Positions 6,705 through 56,321 of a stretch of 61,951 nt of DNA are shown piece after piece (position 1 is the stretch's first letter; each line of letters begins with the position of its first letter). The stretch spans positions 1 to 61,951 of the forward strand of contig CAYVOL010000004.1 of NCBI GenBank assembly GCA_964453135.1. Direction: 5' to 3'. The position numbers were made by a program, and so were the translations under genes. The notes below the pieces were generated by a model that had not been told where the DNA came from, did not search any database, and worked only from the letters and a program-made list of their open reading frames with translations. This DNA is from an uncultured Candidatus Saccharibacteria bacterium. GTDB lineage: Bacteria > Patescibacteriota > Minisyncoccia > UBA6257 > UBA9933.

Positions 6705-6789
6705 GTCATCCTGAGTCCCGCCCCGCCATGGCGGGGGGCGAAGGATCCCGTAGAGATTCTTCACCCCGCTAAGCGGGGCTCAGAATGAC
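6705..6789. repeat. Palindromic REP-like element (head-tail pair)
   Basis: GTCATCCTGAG-hairpin-CGAAGGATC ... GATTCTTC-hairpin-CTCAGAATGAC. Confidence 0.9.
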
Positions 6790-6922
6790 AAAAACAGAGA
6801 ATGATTTTATCGAGATTTCCGAACAGCATCGGTAGTAATTGACAAATGTTTGCATAAAGATATTATAAATAATAAAAATAAAAAGTCGGCATAAAAATAA
6901 TAATCATAAAAAATAATAAATT

Positions 6923-8095
6923 ATGAATAAAATAAATAAATTAGCTGTTTCCGGAGTCGCGATAACGCTTGTTGTCGGAGCGTCTTTGTCTGCCTTTTCT
7001 TTTTCTTTGGCAAAAGGACCAGTTTCATATCCGCGGATAAATCATCAGGCCACTTCTACCGCGACAACCACAAGAACCGAATATCCGGGGGTTCGGAATA
7101 AAGCGGCCACTGCTGGAAAACAAGAAAGGCCGAGTTTTAAAACAGTGCAGGGAACGGTAAAATCTGTTTCAACCGATTCTTTGGTTTTGTCCGTCCGCTC
7201 AACTGACTACACCGTCACCACCGCTTCCGCTACCCGTATCGTCAACCGGGTTTGGCGACATATTAAATTGTCTGACATTAATGCCGGCGATAAAGCGCGG
7301 GTGTTCGGGAAAATAAGCAGCACAACCATTGCCGCTCAAATAATTCGCGATATTTCTCTTCCTAAAGCGGCAAAAACAAACTTAGAAGGAAGAAGGGAAA
7401 CAAGCACTTCCACTGCTACCAGCACCAGCCATGCCCCGCGCATTAAGGAGAAGAACGGCCAAAGCACCAACTGGTCCGGCTATGTCGTGGAAACTAATCT
7501 CACAAACCCGCAAAACAACGCGGTCAGCGATGTGAAGGGAAGCTGGGTGGTTCCGGCGGTTAATTGTGCCGGCGTCAGCGGAAACACTTATTCTTCCGCC
7601 TGGGTTGGCATTGATGGATACAGCGACAATACAGTGGAGCAATTAGGCACAGAGCAAGATTGTATTAATGGCTCTCCTAGTTATTATGCCTGGTACGAAA
7701 TGTATCCTAAGCCGTCTTTTAAGATAAACCTTCCTATTAAAGCCGGTGATATTGTTAATGGAGAGGTGCGATATTTGGGAAATAATCAGTTTCAATTGAC
7801 GCTGATTAACGGTGTGAGTAAAGTTTCTATAACGCAAAAATCCAAAGCCCAGCGCCAGTCTGCTGAATGGATTATGGAGGCTCCGTGGAGCGGCGGCGTG
7901 TTGCCTCTTGCCAATTTCGGCACGATTAACTTCAGCAACGCGCAAGCGACGCTTAATAACACAATCGGCACAATCAGCAGTTGGCCGAATGATCCAATAA
8001 CAATGGTTAACGCCTCTGGTTCTTCAAAAGCAACTCCGTCCGCTCTTTCTCCCGACGGCAGCAGTTTCAGCGTTACCTGGAATAGCAGTAATTAA
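6923..8095 (+). CDS. Secreted protein: signal peptide, DUF5666-like domain, C-terminal family G1 glutamic peptidase
   Basis: STNWSGY, GSWVVP, SAWVGIDG, EQLG, YYAWYEMYP and SAEWIMEAP are G1/eqolisin motifs. The V.GTV..V....D...GDK.RV.G pattern suggests a DUF5666-like domain. Confidence 0.8.
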   Translation: MNKINKLAVSGVAITLVVGASLSAFSFSLAKGPVSYPRINHQATSTATTTRTEYPGVRNKAATAGKQERPSFKTVQGTVKSVSTDSLVLSVRSTDYTVTTASATRIVNRVWRHIKLSDINAGDKARVFGKISSTTIAAQIIRDISLPKAAKTNLEGRRETSTSTATSTSHAPRIKEKNGQSTNWSGYVVETNLTNPQNNAVSDVKGSWVVPAVNCAGVSGNTYSSAWVGIDGYSDNTVEQLGTEQDCINGSPSYYAWYEMYPKPSFKINLPIKAGDIVNGEVRYLGNNQFQLTLINGVSKVSITQKSKAQRQSAEWIMEAPWSGGVLPLANFGTINFSNAQATLNNTIGTISSWPNDPITMVNASGSSKATPSALSPDGSSFSVTWNSSN

Positions 8096-13210: not shown

Positions 13211-13370
13211 GTCATTTTTAATCCCCCGCCACGGCGGGGGCGGAGAAGAATCCACCATGTCATTCTGAATCCGCCAGCAGGCGGATGAAGAATCTTGCGA
13301 GATCCTTCGCTCCGCTCAAGATGACAATGCTGTGTCATTCTGAGCCCCGCCGTGGCGGGGTGAAGAATCT
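13211..13370. repeat. Cluster of four REP-like units
   Basis: GTCATT...GAAGAATC heads at 13211, 13259 and 13334; inverted GATCCTTCG...ATGAC tail at about 13301-13325. Confidence 0.9.
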
Positions 13371-18027: not shown

Positions 18028-18157
18028 GTCATCCTGAGTCCGCCAGTTGGCGGACGAAGGATCTCATAGATTCTTCTCCGCCAGTTGGCGGAGCCGGTTG
18101 GCGGATCAAAATGACAGAGCGAGGATATGGTAGATTCTTCGCTTAGCTCAGAATGAC
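18028..18157. repeat. REP-like cluster
   Basis: GTCATCCTGAG-CCGCCAGTTGGCGG-CGAAGGATC head and two ATGAC-ending tails. Confidence 0.9.
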
Positions 18158-20016: not shown

Positions 20017-20174
20017 GAGATCCTTCGCCCCGCCATGGCGGGGACTCAGGATGACAAGGATGACAAAAATACTCAGGATGACACGGATGACAAAATACTT
20101 AGGATGACACATTTTGTTGTCATTCTGAACGTAGTGAAGAATCCGTCATGTCATTCTGAGTGAGGCGAAGAATC
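20017..20174. repeat. REP-like array upstream of the GIY-YIG gene
   Basis: One tail unit, stuttered GGATGAC copies, then two head units ending 10 nt before the ATG. Confidence 0.9.
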
Positions 20175-20500
20175 CCTAAAAACTATGTCAAAATTATACT
20201 ATGTTTATATAGCAACTAACCCCAACAATAATGTATTATATGCTGGCATCACCAATAATTTAACGAGAAGAATGCAGGAACACAAAAATAAAATAATTGA
20301 AGGATTTACCAAAAAATATAATGTAAATAAATTAGTTTTCTACGAGATTTTTAATAGTGTAAATGAAGCAATTACTGCCGAGAAAAAGATAAAAGGATGG
20401 TTAAGAAAAAAGAAAATAGCGTTAGTTAAAAGTAAAAATCCGCAATTCAAAGATTTAAGCGAAGAATTATGATGAGATCCTTCGTTTTACTCAGGATGAC
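20150..20500. mobile_element. Candidate autonomous element: GIY-YIG gene enclosed by 25-nt imperfect inverted repeats of the REP family
   Basis: Left GTCATTCTGAGTGAGGCGAAGAATC (20150-20174) and right GATCCTTCGTTTTACTCAGGATGAC (20476-20500) match at 20/25 positions as inverted repeats. Mobility is inferred. Confidence 0.55.
20185..20472 (+). CDS. Small stand-alone GIY-YIG endonuclease
   Basis: YYVYI...LYAGITNNL.RR..EH, FTKKYNV.KLV.YE, EA...EK.IKGW.R.KK. The gene is markedly AT-rich. Confidence 0.9.
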   Translation: MSKLYYVYIATNPNNNVLYAGITNNLTRRMQEHKNKIIEGFTKKYNVNKLVFYEIFNSVNEAITAEKKIKGWLRKKKIALVKSKNPQFKDLSEEL

Positions 20501-20700
20501 CAGTGGTATAAAGAGATTTTTTCCGCATAGCAATTTTGATCATTTTGTCATTCTGAATCCCCGCTAAGCGGGGCGGAGAAGAATCTTGTGAGATCCTTCG
20601 CCCCCCGCCGTGGCGGGGAGGGGCTCAGGATGACAAGGATGACAAAAATACTCAGGATGACACGTTTTTATTGTCATTCTGAGCCGGAGGCGAAGAATCT
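20474..20700. repeat. REP-like array downstream of the GIY-YIG gene
   Basis: Tail, head-tail pair, stuttered GGATGAC copies and a final head unit. Confidence 0.9.
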
Positions 20701-24225: not shown

Positions 24226-24491
24226 GTCATTCTGAATCCCGCCCCTTTTGTCATTCTGAATCCGCCAGCAGGCGGAGAAGAATCTATTGTGTCATTTTGA
24301 ACCGCCAGCCGGCGGAGAAGAATCCCGTATTTATGTGGGTTTGATCATGTGAGATCCTTCGTCCGCCAACTGGCGGACTCAGGATGACACGTTTCGCTGT
24401 CATCAAGATGACACGTTTCGCTGTCATTCTGAGCCGAAGGCGAAGAATCTTACGAGATCCCTCGTCCGTCAACTGACGGACTCAGGATGAC
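24226..24491. repeat. Large REP-like cluster followed by decayed AGGATGAC tails to about 24552
   Basis: Multiple GTCATT heads and GATCC...ATGAC tails, with CCGCC-hairpin inserts. Confidence 0.9.
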
Positions 24492-29779: not shown

Positions 29780-29963
29780 GAGATCCTTCGTCCGCCAACT
29801 GGCGGACTCAGGATGACGGAAACGGTTAGAATGACGCCTTGTTGTCATTCTGAGCCCCGACCACTTGTCATTCTGAGCGAAGCGAAGAATCTACCATGTC
29901 TTCGTTATGTCATTCTGAATCCGCCAACTGGCGGACTCAGGAGGACAATTAAAACGGGATGAC
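29780..29963. repeat. REP-like cluster inside the exporter operon
   Basis: GATCCTTCG-CCGCCAACTGGCGG-ACTCAGGATGAC tail and three GTCATTCTGA heads. Confidence 0.9.
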
Positions 29964-45557: not shown

Positions 45558-47351
45558 ATGACTCATCGGGAAATTCGCCAAAAATTCTTTCATTTTTTCA
45601 AGTCCAAAGGACACGCCATTGTAAAATCATCTTCTCTTCTGCCCGACGACCCCTCGGTGCTTATTACTACTGCCGGCATGCAGCAATTCAAGCGTTATTA
45701 CACGGGCGAGCTGGACGCGCTGAAAGATTTCGGCAGCCAGCGAACTGTTTCTATTCAGAAATGTTTCCGCACCAGCGACATTGAAGAAATTGGCGACGAA
45801 AGCCATTTAAGTTTTTTTGAAATGCTGGGCAATTTTTCTTTCGGTCCGGTGGAAGACGACGAACCACAAAATTTTTCTTCCGCCGGCTATTTCAAGCGCT
45901 CCGCCATTCATTGGGCCTTTGAATTTATCGTTAATGTTCTGGAAATTGATTTGAGCCGTATTTATGTCACCGTTTTCGCAGGCGACGAAGAAATTCCTTT
46001 TGACGAAGAATCTTACCGCGTTTGGCAGGAGGAAATCGGCCTTTCCGCTGATAAAATTGTGAAAGGAAGCCGTGCCGATAATTTTTGGGGGCCGACCGGA
46101 AACGAAGGGCCCTGCGGTCCTTGCTCGGAGATTTATATTGACGGCGTGGAAATATGGAATCTGGTTTTTAACGAATACTATAAAACCAAAGACGGCATTT
46201 ATCGGCGGGCGGAAAAGCCCGGCGTAGACACGGGAATGGGGCTGGAACGTTTGGCCGCCGTGTTGCAGGGCGAGGAAAATATTTTCTCCACCGATATTTT
46301 TAGACCTTTGATGAATATGATAGGAGAATTGGCCCCGAAGGCCGATTCGCGCGCCAAGAGAATTTTCGCCGACCACTTACGGGCAATATTTTTTTTGACC
46401 GCCGATGGCATTCGTCCCTCCAATAAAGAAGCGGGTTATATCCTGCGCCGTCTTATTCGCCGCGTTTTGGCTTATTCTATAAAGAACGACATTCATGCCG
46501 ATTTGTTTGCCGATAGCGCGCAAATAATCAAAGAGATTTTCGGGGAAACTTATCCGGAATTAAATAATGCGCAAGAAATTTTAGGAGTTTTGGAAGAGGA
46601 AAAACAAAAATTTGAAATAGCGATTAGCCAGGGAATTAAAGAAATAGAAACTCTGAAAGAAAAAATTACCGGCGAGAAAGCCTTTTATCTTTACGAAACG
46701 TTCGGGTTGTCGTTTGAGTTGATAAAAGAATTGGCGCCGACGTCTTTGACAAAAAATCTCCGCAGAGAAGATTTTGATAAAGAATTTAAGAAGCATCAGG
46801 AAATTTCCCGCGCCGGCGCGGAGAAAAAATTCGGCGGCCACGGCTTGATTTTAGACACCGGCGAATTAAAAGCCTCCAATGAAGAAGAAGCAAAAAAAGT
46901 TATCGCGCTTCATACTGCCACCCATCTTTTGCAGTGGGCTTTGCGTCAAGTGTTGGGCGACGGCGTGGAGCAAAGAGGCTCGGATATCAACGTCGAGCGG
47001 CTCCGTTTCGATTTTTCTTTCGGGAGAAAAATGACCGCGGAAGAAATTGAAAAAACGGAAAATTTGGTGAACGAAAAGATAAAAGAAAATTTGCCGGTTT
47101 ATTTTAAGGAGATGCCCAAAGAAGAAGCGGAAAGCATTGGCGCGCTTTATTTTTTTAAATCCAAATATCCTTCTGTGGTAAAAGTTTTTTTCATCGGGTC
47201 AGAGCAAAGTGGGGGAGCTATTAGCAAAGAATTTTGCGGCGGGCCGCATGTGAATTATACTTCAGAGATAGGCAGTTTTAAGATTGCCAAAGAAGAAGCC
47301 GTTTCCAGCGGCGTAAGAAGGATTAGGGCGACAACAAAGCAAAATGAATAA
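45558..47351 (+). CDS. alaS: Alanine-tRNA ligase, short form without the C-Ala domain
   Basis: AGMQQFK, QKC.R, FEMLGNFSFG, DTGMGLER, editing motifs HTATHLL and FCGGPH, ending GVRRI.A. Confidence 0.94.
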   Translation: MTHREIRQKFFHFFKSKGHAIVKSSSLLPDDPSVLITTAGMQQFKRYYTGELDALKDFGSQRTVSIQKCFRTSDIEEIGDESHLSFFEMLGNFSFGPVEDDEPQNFSSAGYFKRSAIHWAFEFIVNVLEIDLSRIYVTVFAGDEEIPFDEESYRVWQEEIGLSADKIVKGSRADNFWGPTGNEGPCGPCSEIYIDGVEIWNLVFNEYYKTKDGIYRRAEKPGVDTGMGLERLAAVLQGEENIFSTDIFRPLMNMIGELAPKADSRAKRIFADHLRAIFFLTADGIRPSNKEAGYILRRLIRRVLAYSIKNDIHADLFADSAQIIKEIFGETYPELNNAQEILGVLEEEKQKFEIAISQGIKEIETLKEKITGEKAFYLYETFGLSFELIKELAPTSLTKNLRREDFDKEFKKHQEISRAGAEKKFGGHGLILDTGELKASNEEEAKKVIALHTATHLLQWALRQVLGDGVEQRGSDINVERLRFDFSFGRKMTAEEIEKTENLVNEKIKENLPVYFKEMPKEEAESIGALYFFKSKYPSVVKVFFIGSEQSGGAISKEFCGGPHVNYTSEIGSFKIAKEEAVSSGVRRIRATTKQNE

Positions 47352-47730
47352 AATAATTAAATTTTTTGACCGGCTGGAAGATAAAATAAGAAAAAGGCTG
47401 AGCCGCCGGCCGATTTTTTACGCGTTTTTGGGAAGCGTGGGCATAATTTTATTGTGGAGAGGCGTCTGGAAAATCGCCGATAATTTTGATTTATCCGGGC
47501 TTGCCTCCGTTATTCTGGGGCTTTTGATATTGTTAGCCACCGGACTTTTCGTGTCTTTTTTCATCGGAGAGCAAATCATCATTTCCGGAATCAAGGAAGA
47601 AAAAAGAATTGACGAGAAAACAGAAGAAGAAATAAAAGAAGAAGAGATTACTTTGCGGGAAATCCATCAGGACATTTCGGAAATAAAAGAGGAAGTTAAC
47701 AATTTGTCTCATCGCAAAAAAGAAAATTAG
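47344..47730 (+). CDS. Hypothetical two-TM membrane protein with acidic coiled tail
   Basis: 128-aa ORF between alaS and ileS. Confidence 0.7.
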   Translation: MNKIIKFFDRLEDKIRKRLSRRPIFYAFLGSVGIILLWRGVWKIADNFDLSGLASVILGLLILLATGLFVSFFIGEQIIISGIKEEKRIDEKTEEEIKEEEITLREIHQDISEIKEEVNNLSHRKKEN

Positions 47731-47736
47731 CACTCT

Positions 47737-50700
47737 ATGCCATCCGAAGAAAAAAAAGTTCCTGATATATTTCATAAGGCAAAGGCGGCCGATGCGGAGA
47801 AAAAAATTTTAAAGTTTTGGAAGGAAAACAGAATTTTTGAGAAAAGTTTGGAAAAACCGGCGCCAGCCGGAGAATTTGTATTTTACGACGGACCTCCTTT
47901 TGCCACCGGCACTCCTCATTACGGACATATTTTAGCCAGCGTTATTAAAGACGTCATACCGCGCTACCAGACAATGAAAGGAAAGCGGGTGCCGCGTCAA
48001 TGGGGCTGGGATTGCCATGGCCTTCCCATAGAAAACATTGCCGAAAAAGAACTGGGCATCAAGCGGAAAAAAGAAATTGAAGAGCTGGGCATCGGGAAAT
48101 TCAACGAATTCTGCCGTTCCAAAGTATTAAGCTATACCGAAGAATGGAAAAAGGTGATAGACCGCTTGGGTCGCTGGGCGGATATGGAAAGCGCCTACAA
48201 AACAATGGATCTCCATTATATGGAGACAGTTTGGGGGGTGTTTAAGCAGTTATGGGACAAAGGGCTTATTTACGAGGGCTATCGTTCTATGCACATCTGC
48301 CCGCGCTGTGAGACCACGCTTTCCCAGCAAGAAGTGGCAGAGGGATACAAAGACATAAAAGATATTTCCGCGACTGTTAAATTTGAATTAGAAGACGATG
48401 ATATTCCGCGCAATTCTGCGTCAATTCAGAGTAATTCCGCGAGGACGTATGTCTTAGCGTGGACGACCACACCCTGGACTTTAATCGGTAATGTGGCATT
48501 GGCGGTGAACGAAGATATTGATTATGTAAAAGTGAAATCTCTTCGTCATTCTGAATCCGCCAACTGGCGGATGAAGAATCTTACGGGATCCTTCGCCCCC
48601 GCCACGGCGGGGGCTCAGGATGACACGGGCGGATGCTATATCGTCGCGAAAAATCGCCTCAACGAAGTATTCAAAAACGAACATTATGAAATTGTCGCGG
48701 AATTTAAGGGCAAAGATTTGATCGGCAAAAAATATAAACCGCTTTTTGATTACTACTATGATGACAAAAATTTGGAAAATAAAGAGAACGGCTGGAAAAT
48801 TTACGGCGCGGATTTCGTGACAACCGACGAAGGAACCGGTATTGTGCACATCGCTCCGGCTTTCGGCGAAGATGATTTGAATTTAGGGAAAAAACACAAT
48901 CTGCCTTTTATCCAGCATGTCGGAATGGACGGAATAATAAAAAAAGAAGCGAAAGATTTTGCCGGTTATTCCGTTAAGCCTTTCGGCGACCATCAGAAAA
49001 CTGACATAGAAATTATTAAACATCTTTCCGCTCGCGGCTTGCTTTTCGCCAAAGAAAAATACGAGCATTCGTATCCGCATTGTTGGCGGTGTGAAACTCC
49101 GCTGATCAATTACGCCACCTCCTCCTGGTTTGTCAATGTCATTAAACTGAAAACAAAGGCGCTGGAATTGGCGAAAGAAATAAATTGGGTTCCCGAACAC
49201 ATTAAAGAAGGGCGTTTCGGTAACTGGCTGGAAGGCGCGCGTGACTGGTCTATTTCCCGGCAAAGATTTTGGGCGTCAGCTATGCCGATTTGGAAATGTA
49301 AAAATTGCGCGGAGATAAAAGTAATCGGCTCGGTTGACGAATTAAAAAAATATACACAAAAATCCAGCAACAAATATTTTATAATGCGGCACGGCGAGGC
49401 GGAAAGCAACGTTCAAGGCATTGCCAGCGCGTATTTAGACAAGTATCCTCTTACCCCAAAAGGCAGGATGCAGGTTGCGAAGGCGCTGGAGCAAATAAAA
49501 AAACAAAAAATAAATTTAATTTTTTCCTCCACTATTTTACGGGCCAAAGAAACCGCGGAAATAATCTCTGTTGCTTTGGGAAAAAATATAATTTTTGACA
49601 ATCGTTTGAACGAAGCGAACTTCGGATTTTTTAACGGAAAGCCGGTTCAGGAGTATCGCTCCCATTTTTCGTCTTTTAGAGAAAGATTCACTAAAACTCC
49701 CGAAGGCGGAGAAAATTTCTCGCAAGTTAAAAACAGAGCCGCTGATTTTTTGTATGAAATTGAGGCATCTTACGGCAATAAAAATATTTTAATAGTGAGC
49801 CACGAGGCGCCGATTTGGCTGATGTTCGCCGGCGCAGCCGGCTTTGATTTGGATCAGACATTGATTATTCAAGGCAAAGAAGAGGTGTTTGTGCAAAACG
49901 GCGAGGTGAAAGAATTAAATTTTGTTCCCTTGCCGCATAACGATAATTTTGTTCTTGACCTTCATCGGCCATACATAGACGAGATAAAATTAAAATGTTC
50001 TTGCGGTGGCGAGATGAAACGGATATCTGATGTCTTGGACACCTGGTTTGATTCCGGCTCTATGCCGTACACCAGGAAAGAATTCCCGGCGGAATTTATC
50101 GGCGAGGGTGTTGACCAGACGCGCGCGTGGTTTTATTATCTCCACATTATTGCAGCAGCTTTAAGAAATTCAGCGGCGTTTAAAAATGTGATTGTCAATG
50201 GAATTGTTTTAGCGGAAGACGGGAAGAAAATGAGCAAGCGCCTCAAGAATTATCCGGACCCGATGGAGATTATTGAAAAATATGGAGCGGATGCTTTGCG
50301 GATTTATCTTTTGTCTTCGCCGGTAGTGCGCGCGGAAAATCTTAATTTTTCCGAAAAAGGAGTTGACGAAGCGCATAAGAAAGTAGTTTTGCGGCTGAAA
50401 AACGTGCTGGCTTTTTACAATCTATACGCCGATAAAAATTTTCAAGATACAAGTTTCAAGATTCAAGGTTTGAACATTTTAGACGAGTGGATTTTGGCGC
50501 GGCTGAATGAACTGATAAAAGAAATTTCCGAAGCGCTGGATAAATACGAATTAGACAAAGCAACTCGTCCCATCGCTGATTTTGTTGATGACTTATCCAC
50601 TTGGTATGTTAGAAGATCAAGAGAAAGGTTTAAAAATGACGATAAAGACAAAGAAAAAGCGATTGCTGTATTGCGTTTTGTTTTAACGGAGATTTCCAAA

Positions 50701-51327
50701 ACCATCGCGCCGTTTATGCCGTTTACAGCGGAAGAAATTTATCAAGTTGTCGGGTATCAAGTTTCAGGCGTCAGGAATCTAGAATCGGTTCATTTAGAAA
50801 GTTGGCCCAAAGCTGATGAGAAAAATATTAACAAGAGATTGTTGGAAGATATGGCGATGACGAGAAAAATTTGTTCGCTTGGACTGGAAGCGCGGCAGAA
50901 AGCGGGAATAAAAGTGCGCCAGCCGCTCGCGTCGCTTAAAGTTAAAGTTGGGGAGCAAGTTAAAGTTATTGACAAAACGTTTTTAGATTTGATGGAAGAC
51001 GAATTAAATATAAAAGAAATTATTTTTGACGATAGAATTTCCGATGAAATTGAATTAGATACGAATATCACGCCCGAGTTAAAAGTCGAAGGCCGATTGC
51101 GGGAATTGACGCGCGCCATTCAGGATTTACGCAAGAAATCCGGCCTGACGCACCAGGATAAGATAAAACTTGTTATTGAAAGCGACAGCGCAGGCGAAAA
51201 ACTGATAGAAATGTTCAGAGATGAAATCAAAGAAAGCGTGAACGCGGACGCAATAAAATTATCCCAAAATAACGGAGAAGCGGTAGATATTGATGAATTA
51301 AAATTCAAAATAGAAATTGAAAAATGA
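47737..51327 (+). CDS. ileS: Isoleucine-tRNA ligase (type 2) with an inserted histidine-phosphatase domain and repeat-derived peptides
   Basis: DGPPFATG.PHYGH, GWDCHGLP, WTTTPWTL, DWSISRQR.W, GVDQTRAWF, KMSKR, EG..REL.R.IQ..RK. Confidence 0.96.
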   Translation: MPSEEKKVPDIFHKAKAADAEKKILKFWKENRIFEKSLEKPAPAGEFVFYDGPPFATGTPHYGHILASVIKDVIPRYQTMKGKRVPRQWGWDCHGLPIENIAEKELGIKRKKEIEELGIGKFNEFCRSKVLSYTEEWKKVIDRLGRWADMESAYKTMDLHYMETVWGVFKQLWDKGLIYEGYRSMHICPRCETTLSQQEVAEGYKDIKDISATVKFELEDDDIPRNSASIQSNSARTYVLAWTTTPWTLIGNVALAVNEDIDYVKVKSLRHSESANWRMKNLTGSFAPATAGAQDDTGGCYIVAKNRLNEVFKNEHYEIVAEFKGKDLIGKKYKPLFDYYYDDKNLENKENGWKIYGADFVTTDEGTGIVHIAPAFGEDDLNLGKKHNLPFIQHVGMDGIIKKEAKDFAGYSVKPFGDHQKTDIEIIKHLSARGLLFAKEKYEHSYPHCWRCETPLINYATSSWFVNVIKLKTKALELAKEINWVPEHIKEGRFGNWLEGARDWSISRQRFWASAMPIWKCKNCAEIKVIGSVDELKKYTQKSSNKYFIMRHGEAESNVQGIASAYLDKYPLTPKGRMQVAKALEQIKKQKINLIFSSTILRAKETAEIISVALGKNIIFDNRLNEANFGFFNGKPVQEYRSHFSSFRERFTKTPEGGENFSQVKNRAADFLYEIEASYGNKNILIVSHEAPIWLMFAGAAGFDLDQTLIIQGKEEVFVQNGEVKELNFVPLPHNDNFVLDLHRPYIDEIKLKCSCGGEMKRISDVLDTWFDSGSMPYTRKEFPAEFIGEGVDQTRAWFYYLHIIAAALRNSAAFKNVIVNGIVLAEDGKKMSKRLKNYPDPMEIIEKYGADALRIYLLSSPVVRAENLNFSEKGVDEAHKKVVLRLKNVLAFYNLYADKNFQDTSFKIQGLNILDEWILARLNELIKEISEALDKYELDKATRPIADFVDDLSTWYVRRSRERFKNDDKDKEKAIAVLRFVLTEISKTIAPFMPFTAEEIYQVVGYQVSGVRNLESVHLESWPKADEKNINKRLLEDMAMTRKICSLGLEARQKAGIKVRQPLASLKVKVGEQVKVIDKTFLDLMEDELNIKEIIFDDRISDEIELDTNITPELKVEGRLRELTRAIQDLRKKSGLTHQDKIKLVIESDSAGEKLIEMFRDEIKESVNADAIKLSQNNGEAVDIDELKFKIEIEK
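48545..48624. repeat. REP-like head-tail pair inserted in-frame in ileS
   Basis: GTCATTCTGAATCCGCCAACTGGCGGATGAAGAATC-ttacgg-GATCCTTCGCCCCCGCCACGGCGGGGGCTCAGGATGAC. Confidence 0.92.
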
Positions 51328-53891: not shown

Positions 53892-56321
53892 ATGAAGAAA
53901 CACCTTTCAACTGCGAGAATTTTATTTGGGACGGCTTTGGCAATCGCTTTGTTTTATCCGTCTCTTAATGCTTTGGCGGCTGCGTCGTTTAATAACGATT
54001 CTCAGGATCGCCCCACTCTTCAGGTTTCCAACTATTCTCTTAACCCCGGGTGCACCACCTGCTGGTCAACTTCTGTTTCCGCCAATGCCGGAGATATTGT
54101 TAGTTTTTTGATATATTACCACAATACTTCTCAAGAAACCGCTTTGCAAACTCGCTTGAACGCCATTTTGCCTAGCGCCGCTTTTACTTCTGTTGTTGTC
54201 ACCGGTCAAGTTTGGGCGCAAAACGCTTCTCCCGCGATGGGCAACGCGAGTATTCATCTTTCTTCCAGTCAAACTTTAACATTTATTCCGGGATCGGTTT
54301 CTTGGTATCCTAACCGTTCTTCTTCTGCGCAGTCGCTCCTTAACGGGCAAAGCGGAAGCGAGGTGGTGTCTTCCGGTGGATTGAACGTGGGCGACGTTGC
54401 GCCAGGATGGGGGACGCAAGGATATTTGGTTTTCAGGGCGCAAGTGAGCAACAACACCTCCGGCTCCGCTCCTTCTGTCATCACCAATTCCGCCACCAAC
54501 ATTTCCCAAAATTCCGCCACTTTGAACGGCTCGGTCAATCCCAATAACAGTAATACCAACGTGTGGTTTGAATACGGCACCACTTTTTCTTTGGGAAATC
54601 AGACAAACACCCAATCCGCTGGTAACGGTAGCAATTCTATTTCTCTTAATTTCTCCTTATCCAATTTACAGCCCAACACCACTTATTACTTCCGCGCCGT
54701 GGCGCAGAATTCTTTTGGCACTTCTCAGGGCAGTATTTTGAGTTTCACCACTAACAGCGGAGGAGGAGGCGGCTCGGGCTCCGCGCCCACTGTTTACACT
54801 AATTCCGCCACTGGCGTGGGGCAAAATTTCGCCACATTTAACGCCACCGTTAATCCCAATGAGTCTAATACCAATATGTGGTTTGAATATGGGACTAATT
54901 TTTCTTTGGGATATACCACCGGTTATCAATCCGTTGGCAATTTGAATTATCAAACAAATATCATGGCGTATGCGGGAAATCTCAACCCCAACGCCACTTA
55001 TTACTTCCGCGCCGTGGCGCAGAATTCTTTTGGCACTTCTTACGGCAGTATTTTGAGTTTCAATACCAGCGGCTATGGATACGGCGGATATTATGGCAAT
55101 TACAATAATAATATTACTCCGACTGTTTACACTAATTCCGCCAGCAACATTTACGGCAACAGCGTCACTCTTAACGGCTCGGTCAATCCCAACGGCTCAT
55201 ACGCCAACGCTTGGTTTGAATACGGCACCACATATTCCTTGGGCTACACAACTGGCTATCAATCTGTCGGCACCAGCAACTATCAGATGAATATCGCTGC
55301 TTCTTTGTCCAATCTTTCTCCTAATGCCACTATCTACTTCCGCGCCGTGGCGCAGAACACTTATGGCACTTCCTATGGAAGTATTTTGAGCTTTACCACT
55401 GGAGCAGGAGGATATACCGGCTACGGCGGGTATTCAGCCGGAAACGCGCCGAGTGTTTATACTTCTCCCGCTACCTTTATTTTCCGCAATTCCGCCATGC
55501 TCAACGGCTCTGTTAATCCCAACAGCAGTTTAGCTACCGCGTGGTTTGAGTGGGGAACTAATTCTCAACTGGGCAATAGAACTTCCGATATTGGCGCGGG
55601 ACAAGGGAATTATTCTTCGCCGGTTTCTTTCGCGCTCACTGGTTTAAGCGATTCCACTGATTATTATTTCCGCTTGGTGGCGCAAAATTCTTACGGAACA
55701 AATTACGGAACCGTTTATACTTTCAAAACGCAAAACGGCGCCTATACTGCTCCTCGCGTTTATCAGCAGCCCACGGTTTATTACGCTCCCGCCGCGCCCG
55801 CGGCCAAAGAAGCGCCAATAGTTTTAAGTCCTTCTGTTGACAATCCCAATCCTCAAGCCGGAGATGAGATTTCTCTTATAATCACATACCGCAATAACGG
55901 AAAAAATCCTGTTTCTAACGCTGTTTTGAGAGTCGTTTTGCCCAAAGAAGTCAGCTATATTTCCTCCAATGTTCAGCCGTCTTCTGTTGACGGAAACAAT
56001 TTAAGATATGAATTGGGAACTTTTTACGGCAACAGCCAGGGAGTGATAACCGTCAAAGTGAAAATTGACAGCTCGGTAGACGCGGGAAGCGCTCTGGTTT
56101 TCGGCAGTATCCTTGATTATAATGACGAGAGAGGGAAATTTCAGAGCGTCAACGCTTATCTTACCGTGGCGATAAAAGGCGCGAAACTCACCGCTTCCAT
56201 TCTGGATTTTCTTTATGGATTTTTGAACAACTGGTTTGTTGATTTGCTGTTGGGATTGGCGCTGGGTTTCGGCATCTATCACTTTTTCATCAAAGGAAAA
56301 GATGCTGATGCGGCGGCGTAG
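53892..56321 (+). CDS. Surface protein with four FN3-like repeats, a DUF11-like domain and a C-terminal TM
   Basis: Signal peptide; 4x AP.V.T..A......AT.NG.VNPN.....WFEYGT...L...TTYYFR.VAQN..GT..G....FTT; then P.AGDEI...I.Y.N.G module. Confidence 0.82.
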   Translation: MKKHLSTARILFGTALAIALFYPSLNALAAASFNNDSQDRPTLQVSNYSLNPGCTTCWSTSVSANAGDIVSFLIYYHNTSQETALQTRLNAILPSAAFTSVVVTGQVWAQNASPAMGNASIHLSSSQTLTFIPGSVSWYPNRSSSAQSLLNGQSGSEVVSSGGLNVGDVAPGWGTQGYLVFRAQVSNNTSGSAPSVITNSATNISQNSATLNGSVNPNNSNTNVWFEYGTTFSLGNQTNTQSAGNGSNSISLNFSLSNLQPNTTYYFRAVAQNSFGTSQGSILSFTTNSGGGGGSGSAPTVYTNSATGVGQNFATFNATVNPNESNTNMWFEYGTNFSLGYTTGYQSVGNLNYQTNIMAYAGNLNPNATYYFRAVAQNSFGTSYGSILSFNTSGYGYGGYYGNYNNNITPTVYTNSASNIYGNSVTLNGSVNPNGSYANAWFEYGTTYSLGYTTGYQSVGTSNYQMNIAASLSNLSPNATIYFRAVAQNTYGTSYGSILSFTTGAGGYTGYGGYSAGNAPSVYTSPATFIFRNSAMLNGSVNPNSSLATAWFEWGTNSQLGNRTSDIGAGQGNYSSPVSFALTGLSDSTDYYFRLVAQNSYGTNYGTVYTFKTQNGAYTAPRVYQQPTVYYAPAAPAAKEAPIVLSPSVDNPNPQAGDEISLIITYRNNGKNPVSNAVLRVVLPKEVSYISSNVQPSSVDGNNLRYELGTFYGNSQGVITVKVKIDSSVDAGSALVFGSILDYNDERGKFQSVNAYLTVAIKGAKLTASILDFLYGFLNNWFVDLLLGLALGFGIYHFFIKGKDADAAA

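Follow-up and report, generated by a model that had tools for sequence, protein, structure and literature searches.

Short palindromic repeats that lie in frame within essential genes of a reduced genome, and are translated and tolerated there, are known as the Rickettsia palindromic elements (RPEs; Ogata et al. 2000, discussed in PMC3733652). Repetitive extragenic palindromes (REPs) with a GTAG or CGTC tag lie mostly between genes and are often arranged as inverted dimers (Di Nocera, De Gregorio & Rocco 2013, PMC3733652). The same source documents intragenic REPs in several species, with dimers that encode 20-30 residues, and different REPs at about one recB site in two Xanthomonas species; it places Rickettsia RPE-4/6 in the CGTC class, reports the CGTC REPs without a dedicated enzyme gene, and describes REPtrons, in which the gene of a REP-associated tyrosine transposase (RAYT) is flanked by inverted REPs. 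Miniature inverted-repeat transposable elements (MITEs) are also found in frame in bacterial genes, for example in Coxiella burnetii (PMC5896051; reviewed by Delihas 2011, PMC3184786). Here we describe an 80-nt palindromic repeat pair at positions 48545-48624 of a 61,951-nt contig stretch (CAYVOL010000004.1, hereafter the window) from an uncultured Candidatus Saccharibacteria bacterium, where it lies within ileS, the gene for a type-2 isoleucyl-tRNA synthetase (IleRS). With a probability of roughly 80%, we interpret it as a lineage-specific, in-frame and tolerated insertion of a resident palindromic composite at a permissive and repeatedly struck hairpin turn of the CP1 editing domain. Such events are already known from Rickettsia and from some REP-rich bacteria; our literature search for work linking the candidate phyla radiation (CPR, or Patescibacteria) with REPs or RPEs found no report.

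The host gene occupies positions 47737-51327 of the plus strand and its open reading frame (ORF) translates into 1196 aa with matches to the Pfam domains tRNA-synt_1, His_Phos_1, Anticodon_1 and DUF5915. The element is an intact inverted pair of a repeat unit that is resident in the window (GTCATYCTGA-hairpin-GAAGRATC). Its left unit, of an "AATC type" (48545-48580, plus strand), consists of GTCATTCTGA, a GC hairpin ATCCGCCAACTGGCGGAT and GAAGAATC; it was recognized both by regular expression and as a member of repeat family D2, and it is 91% identical over 55 nt to an intergenic copy at 13259-13313. A 6-nt spacer, TTACGG (48581-48586, plus strand), delimited by comparing the flanks of all copies, separates it from the right, inverted unit of a "GGATC type" (48587-48624, minus strand), which reads GATCCTTC-GCCCCCGCCACGGCGGGGGC (GC hairpin)-TCAGGATGAC on the plus strand and matches repeat family D6 at 91%. 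The extremities GTCATTCTGA and TCAGGATGAC are terminal inverted repeats that pair over 10 nt with one T-G position, and the composite as a whole begins with CGTC. When the 106 nt from 48535 to 48640, which contain the pair, were folded as RNA, a three-way structure of -53.9 kcal/mol was obtained (z = -6.0), and none of 200 shuffled sequences was as stable. The complete repeat pair announced in a preliminary description of this DNA is thus present in the sequence and position given there.

As translated, the inserted block comprises 81 nt or 27 codons (R270-D296; 48544-48624, plus strand), with borders that are ambiguous by one base (C plus the 80 nt, or the 80 nt plus A). The peptide in the ileS frame is RHSESANWRMKNLTGSFAPATAGAQDD (residues 270-296), from which the tryptic peptides HSESANWR and NLTGSFAPATAGAQDDTGGCYIVAK are predicted. 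The preliminary description put about 27 residues between YVKVK and YIVAK; this holds for the element's own peptide, but the gap itself is 33 residues (SL + 27 + TGGC). The GC content of the insert is 60.5%, as against 42% in the remainder of ileS, and the frame stays open for 900 codons beyond it, as had been claimed. Only two of the six combinations of orientation and frame of the composite are free of stops; the frame in use is one of these, and it is hydrophilic. The composite's 80 nt equal 2 mod 3 and become 81 nt with the tag base, whereas the five intergenic composites measure 85, 67, 88, 88 and 69 nt. The same regularity extends to relatives: in all nine in-gene composites that we located in seven genomes, the G of GTCAT falls at codon position 2 (9/9), and all are stop-free multiples of three in the frame used, which the intergenic copies are not. 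These differences in length and frame show signs of a translation filter, and because the window insert is itself stop-free and a multiple of three, we infer that it is translated as part of IleRS.

The element would thus work like an RPE or an intragenic REP dimer, and we regard it as an analogue of these. The parallel with the Rickettsia elements that was drawn earlier is a good one, as a likeness of function and not as membership of that family. Both are palindromic repeats in frame in a conserved, essential protein, at a surface position apparently away from the catalytic sites, tolerated, and in a small genome. The ileS element, however, belongs to a Parcubacteria-like metagenome-assembled genome of the Patescibacteria and is an 80-nt heterodimer of two units of about 36 nt, a sequence that we call different from the RPEs, which we take by their description. 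Translation has been shown for some RPEs, whereas here it is deduced from sequence. Moreover, unlike the RPEs, the present elements have struck one protein turn many times across a phylum-level radiation, and their full-length relatives carry a gene for a GIY-YIG nuclease. Most units have a TGTC tag and units of this kind enclose a nuclease gene; for these reasons we have filed the ileS element neither as an RPE nor as a member of the CGTC family.

With respect to the enzyme, the insert starts (R270) 21 residues after the threonine-rich editing motif W242-T248, in CP1, the region to which it had been assigned. A phmmer alignment to the solved P. megaterium IleRS2 structure 8c8v (E = 2e-59) matches ...DYVKVK up to chain residue 247 and resumes with GCYIVAK at residue 251, so that about 31 residues of the window protein stand opposite only 3 residues (248-250) of 8c8v, which form the turn between the strands YVRAE and SVYIVAE. 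An AlphaFold2 model computed with 60 orthologues has a mean predicted local distance difference test score (pLDDT) of 82 and a template modelling (TM) score of 0.82 against 8c8v, normalised to the target; its pLDDT falls below 50 at residues 272-297, and strands are modelled at 262-269 and 300-304. The insert is therefore predicted to be a disordered loop of 27 residues at the tip of a CP1 beta-hairpin, and the structural mapping that had been suggested agrees with the placement of the insert at this turn. The HIGH region, KMSK, W242-T248, N252, H371 and D380, which we take to be the residues of editing and catalysis, occupy invariant or nearly invariant columns among the 60 orthologues and are all present, and from its sequence the IleRS that carries the insert looks like an otherwise intact enzyme.

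A second variable loop lies just before the WTTTPW editing motif, at 48400-48441 (residues ~222-235). There the window protein has IPRNSASIQSNSA, which is 13 residues longer than the bare loop and is modelled at low confidence. In orthologues this upstream loop holds other repeat-like peptides (TNYESDTNVRITN, GQKIGDF, PSPYKGEG and, in one case, VILNEAERSEES...AAAQDD). We considered whether the window's version of the loop is a window-wide repeat, and rejected the idea: AATTCYGCG has 7 matches against 3.6 expected, a number reached by 8 of 100 shuffles, and no family was assigned to it.

To place the insert among its relatives we surveyed 120 Patescibacteria orthologues, ranked by similarity to the insert-containing query region, a ranking that may slightly enrich for similar inserts. 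The segment at the CP1 turn has the bare length in 46 of them and is longer in 74, and in 13 of the 120 it holds a pair-type insert with the peptide signature [CR]H[SP]...[QH]DD. We inspected the DNA of six carriers (L001-L006), each from a public assembly: right after the strand ...YVK(V/I)(K/R) it reads TGTCAT(Y)C...CAGGATGAC, or CGGCATGAC at the far end in L006. Distant orthologues with similar peptides (CHSE...AQDD) hence carry the repeat at the DNA level as well, as apparently separate events, and the peptide without the repeat, which the preliminary description had named as a refuting observation, was not encountered. Elsewhere in the 120 IleRS sequences, pair-type inserts occur twice near residue ~1010 and as single cases in the upstream loop and at the C-terminus, so that 13 of the ~17 in-gene copies in IleRS are at the CP1 turn. 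Other fillings of the turn include single units (CHSREGGNP), TTDSH... motifs, KNQKSK... motifs and heptamer arrays such as IMNNELGIKNE, which corresponds to AATGAAT repeats in L010. Judging from these alignments, the turn is a recurrent hot spot across the Patescibacteria, occupied in some lineages by members of this repeat superfamily and in others by short repeats that are unrelated to it. Larger fillings are also found: about 180 residues of alpha/beta-hydrolase-like sequence in P0034, and low-complexity inserts of 70-80 residues in P0004 and P0009.

The pair-type insert is scattered over the IleRS phylogeny. On a tree of 115 full-length proteins, computed with the insert columns dropped, the pair-type state changes at least 9 times among 12 carriers, a count that has no direction as between gain and loss; the strongly supported branches alone force 9 changes, and an IQ-TREE analysis of 44 sequences gives the same number. 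With shuffled labels the mean is 10.7, and the trait is thus scattered nearly at random. An approximately unbiased (AU) test against a topology with all carriers in one clade rejects a single origin (difference in log-likelihood 1604, p = 3e-55). The window's own clade (support 100), which unites its protein with its four closest relatives P0118, P0046, P0035 and P0071, contains no other carrier. At the nucleotide level the window copy is 71-82% identical over its full length to the intergenic composites of its own genome and only 53-64% identical to the in-gene copies of orthologues, which points to gain within its own lineage. The fact that the window insert begins two codons further from the strand than those of L001-L004 (K-SL-R... 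as opposed to K-C...) suggests an event separate from theirs. Within some pairs (L001/L003, P0019/P0024 and P0027/P0031), the insert was probably inherited, and L001 and L003 have a common spacer sequence.

Gain is also indicated by the relative L002, whose ileS copy (contig positions 10791-10870) is identical at 80 of 80 positions to one that lies in frame in argS (6878-6957); ileS has one more in-frame copy, a shorter one, at contig positions 12495-12553. None of the three is present in the syntenic sister locus L008, the IleRS of which is 86% identical in nucleotides and 87% in amino acids. On this comparison the L002 copies are best read as a recent burst in one lineage, and the earlier proposal that the family reaches new coding sites is borne out by these orthologues. 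The L002 ileS also has further short repeat-like inserts, PSGLKATSPYKRE and IKNQKSNIKN.

Within the window itself, a census of the unit pattern GTCATYCTGA ... GAAGRATC on both strands yielded 25 units of 25-54 nt, two in ileS and the other 23 in six intergenic clusters. About 91% of the window is coding, and with seven clusters the probability that no more than one would be in coding DNA is 4e-6. Inverted dimers number at least five. Every unit starts with GTC, and the base before it is mostly T, the exceptions being a C (ileS copy and 13211) and a G (6705); the unit tag is YGTC, mostly TGTC. An opposite-orientation composite at 6705-6789 is the best full-length match to the ileS copy (82%). 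The remaining clusters comprise four units at 13211-13369, with a composite at 13259-13325; three at 18028-18157, with an opposite-orientation composite at 18028-18115; seven at 20019-20699, with a composite at 20547-20634 (81% identical to the ileS copy) and the bracketed GIY-YIG gene; five at 24250-24491, with a composite at 24423-24491; and a further cluster of units at 29782-29891. The layout of the ileS element, left "AATC" unit, 6-nt spacer and inverted "GGATC" unit, recurs with a near-identical junction at 13259-13325, 20547-20634 and 24423-24491. Where the ileS copy has TTACGG, the intergenic composites have TTGCGA, TTGTGA or TTACGA, and at 20175-20475 a whole GIY-YIG ORF stands in this position. 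The family resembles the CGTC REPs, which are stem-loops of 20-40 nt, in being multi-copy, mostly intergenic and arranged in inverted dimers, and the ileS copy has a CGTC start; it differs from them in that most units are TGTC-tagged and in the GIY-YIG gene that units bracket.

This gene together with its bracketing units, at 20150-20500 on the plus strand, is a candidate full-length relative of the composite. A left unit (20150-20174) ends 10 nt before the ATG of an ORF (20185-20472) of 95 aa that matches Pfam GIY-YIG (E = 5e-19), and an inverted right unit (20476-20500) starts 3 nt past its stop. The bracketing ends are of the same "AATC-left / GGATC-right" kind as those of the ileS composite, and the ORF stands where that composite has its 6-nt spacer. 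We examined 80 GIY-YIG homologues from species-representative genomes, mostly Patescibacteria, the other labels being Elusimicrobia, Chloroflexota, Pirellulales, Thermoguttaceae, Tepidisphaerales, Nitrospiraceae, Ignavibacteriales and others. Of the 80 genes, 72 are preceded by the head motif within 120 nt, 74 are followed by its inverse, and 67 have both. A stricter motif gave an inward-facing pair at 61 of the 80 loci, compared with 11 of 80 for the outward-facing control. Whole units were found upstream in 57 of 80 loci and downstream in 34, a number that is underestimated because many ORFs extend into this inverted unit, where the TGA of CAGGATGAC ends them; among 291 shifted controls the corresponding numbers were 1 and 4, and none had units on both sides. 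The left-TC / right-CC layout of ileS occurs more often than any other combination (28 of 61). The GIY-YIG gene and the repeat ends are thus associated across several phyla. The protein has no NCBIfam name, and in a literature search we found no report that links GIY-YIG proteins with REPs. A GIY-YIG gene directly upstream of ileS in L005 is without flanking units, and we have treated it as a coincidence.

The arrangement is reminiscent of the REPtrons: an enzyme gene lies between inward-facing units, and the genome has numerous dispersed copies that lack the ORF. RAYTs are thought to mobilise REPs. The enzyme here, however, is a 95-aa GIY-YIG nuclease and not an HUH/Y1 transposase, and its action on the repeats is putative; the GIY-YIG nuclease is, to our knowledge, not a known transposase family. 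Like MITEs, the composites are non-autonomous, have inverted ends and can add peptide segments, but they differ in having no target-site duplication and in ends that are the 10-nt arms of hairpin repeats and not long terminal inverted repeats. No transposase-bearing parent insertion sequence turned up, although no scan aimed at transposases was made; the longer form with the same ends as the ileS composite encodes the GIY-YIG nuclease instead. By analogy with the REPtrons, this nuclease is our best candidate for moving the ORF-less composites, a role that we consider possible with the odds somewhat against it. It could equally be a homing endonuclease gene that is lodged inside the palindrome. 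A more specific version, in which the 80-nt composite would be the ORF-less form of an undescribed mobile element (a GIY-YIG gene between inward-facing TGTC hairpin units), is rather doubtful; the nuclease or its repair products would then place the composite again and again at certain DNA sites, among them the CP1 turn (at least 9 independent events), by an event of the replacement, break-repair or template-switch type and not by a transposition that duplicates its target. If this were true, the long-missing mobilising enzyme of the CGTC/TGTC-type REPs would have been named; in any case the bracketing across phyla provides a concrete and testable candidate for it.

The best account of the window locus would be that ileS of this lineage received a copy of the genome's own composite, which consists of two hairpin units with TGTC/CGTC tags in inverted arrangement, and that the copy landed where a beta-hairpin of the CP1 editing domain turns. 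It would have survived there because it is 81 nt long, a multiple of three, with a stop-free hydrophilic frame, and because the surface loop is permissive. The ribosome would read through the element to give a disordered 27-residue loop (R270-D296) on an otherwise intact type-2 IleRS, a loop that appears to be a tolerated passenger with no sign of a functional module. In other Patescibacteria the same turn has been struck repeatedly and independently.

Four other explanations deserve consideration. The insert could go back to a single ancient insertion in an early Patescibacteria IleRS, followed by precise hairpin-mediated losses and by overwriting through gene conversion from each genome's copies. 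The start of the insert at nearly the same codon position and its same frame in L001-L004, the descent suggested by the common spacer of L001 and L003, the blindness of the tree counts to gain and loss, and the faint resemblance of the empty L008 loops to the element ends would all suit this scheme. It is nevertheless unlikely in view of the near-random scatter of the trait, the canonical empty-loop length in 46 of 120 orthologues, the offset of two codons in the window protein, the unrelated repeat classes that fill the turn in other lineages, and the three (near-)identical in-gene copies of L002 that its sister lacks, which fit a recent burst. A loop co-opted for a function in IleRS, such as partner binding or the tuning of editing, might explain why the turn is so often filled (74 of 120 orthologues, including the ~180-residue domain of P0034), and the site is within the editing domain. 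The fillings, however, share neither sequence nor length and change from one sister taxon to another, disorder is predicted for the peptide, a bare turn suffices in the 46 short orthologues, and the element occurs in argS and elsewhere in IleRS as well; we consider co-option quite improbable.

Removal of the element before the mature protein is formed, by excision from the mRNA, by ribosomal bypassing of the kind known from T4 gene 60 and from the "byp" GC elements of yeast mitochondria, or by protein splicing, is suggested by the very stable RNA structure inside the ORF and is a shade less credible still. The lengths and stop-free frames of the nine in-gene copies, unlike those of the intergenic ones, would be expected only if the copies were translated. 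In addition, no Rfam family, intron or other, matches 48300-48900 at E <= 1, and the element has neither a stop codon nor the matched take-off and landing codons of known bypass sites; at 27 residues it is also far below the size of an intein, the blocks of which are of at least ~130 aa. The least probable explanation of all is an assembly artefact, either a repeat threaded wrongly into ileS or two strains joined at the repeat. The metagenomic source, the multi-copy repeat and a word depth over the element that is about five-fold higher, from the pile-up of other copies, would invite such a mistake. Four public runs contain words of the stretch, three of them from one mine-drainage sample, with no RNA run among the four. 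In the Logan run-level assemblies of two runs of one sample, separate contigs of 2191 nt and 4939 nt span 48300-48900 with 0 and 1 differences and identical junctions, and neither contains a joint that skips the element; these contigs come from the likely source sample, and they rule out a mis-join that arose once, though a minor empty allele would not show in them. Both flanks continue a single collinear IleRS, the insert keeps the frame, and an element of this kind occupies the CP1 turn in six other public assemblies, whose samples are unrelated.

Several points weigh against the account that we favour. The nearest IleRS relatives of the window protein are only 73-75% identical overall, so that the empty site of this lineage and any target duplication are undefinable, and an identity of just 71-82% to the other copies makes the insertion undatable. 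The change count is undirected, and an old insert that was precisely lost on many occasions would give a scattered trait as well. The loop's translation is read from the DNA contigs of one sample, and the link between the GIY-YIG gene and the repeats is one of co-location only. Finally, at the three sites where filled L002 and empty L008 loops were compared, the element replaces 3-4 loop residues and is not a plain addition. Neither the window copy nor these three filled-versus-empty comparisons revealed a target-site duplication, and a search for a target motif found none. The L002/L008 pattern hence does not look like textbook cut-and-paste transposition; the replacement of residues could reflect break repair, template switching or a later trimming of the loops. 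The faint resemblance of the empty L008 loops to the element ends may be a chance effect in AT-rich sequence.

In-frame repeat insertion is an active process in the Patescibacteria, as the identical copies in two aminoacyl-tRNA synthetase genes of one relative and their absence from its sister indicate. A single beta-hairpin turn of the IleRS editing domain has been filled time after time by selfish DNA, and selfish repeats therefore steadily supply loop insertions to the "insert-rich" housekeeping proteins of the CPR. Such inserts inflate the lengths of CPR proteins, yield spurious "hypothetical" peptide motifs (CHSE...AQDD is an example), and can lead alignments and phylogenies astray.

Some further features of the window may be mentioned. 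A full histidine-phosphatase domain (His_Phos_1, E = 6e-36) is nested in the IleRS catalytic body at residues 548-708 (49378-49860), and this nesting is common to a subset of orthologues (P0003, P0010, P0027, P0035 and others). Directly upstream of ileS is a 128-aa gene (47344-47730) with no Pfam match; its syntenic counterparts in L001 (9587-9973) and L011 match 23S_rRNA_IVP (PF05635). Further downstream, at 54469-55522, four tandem copies of about 315-330 nt (families D1 and D3) lie inside an 809-aa ORF (53892-56321) that looks like a repeat-domain surface protein.

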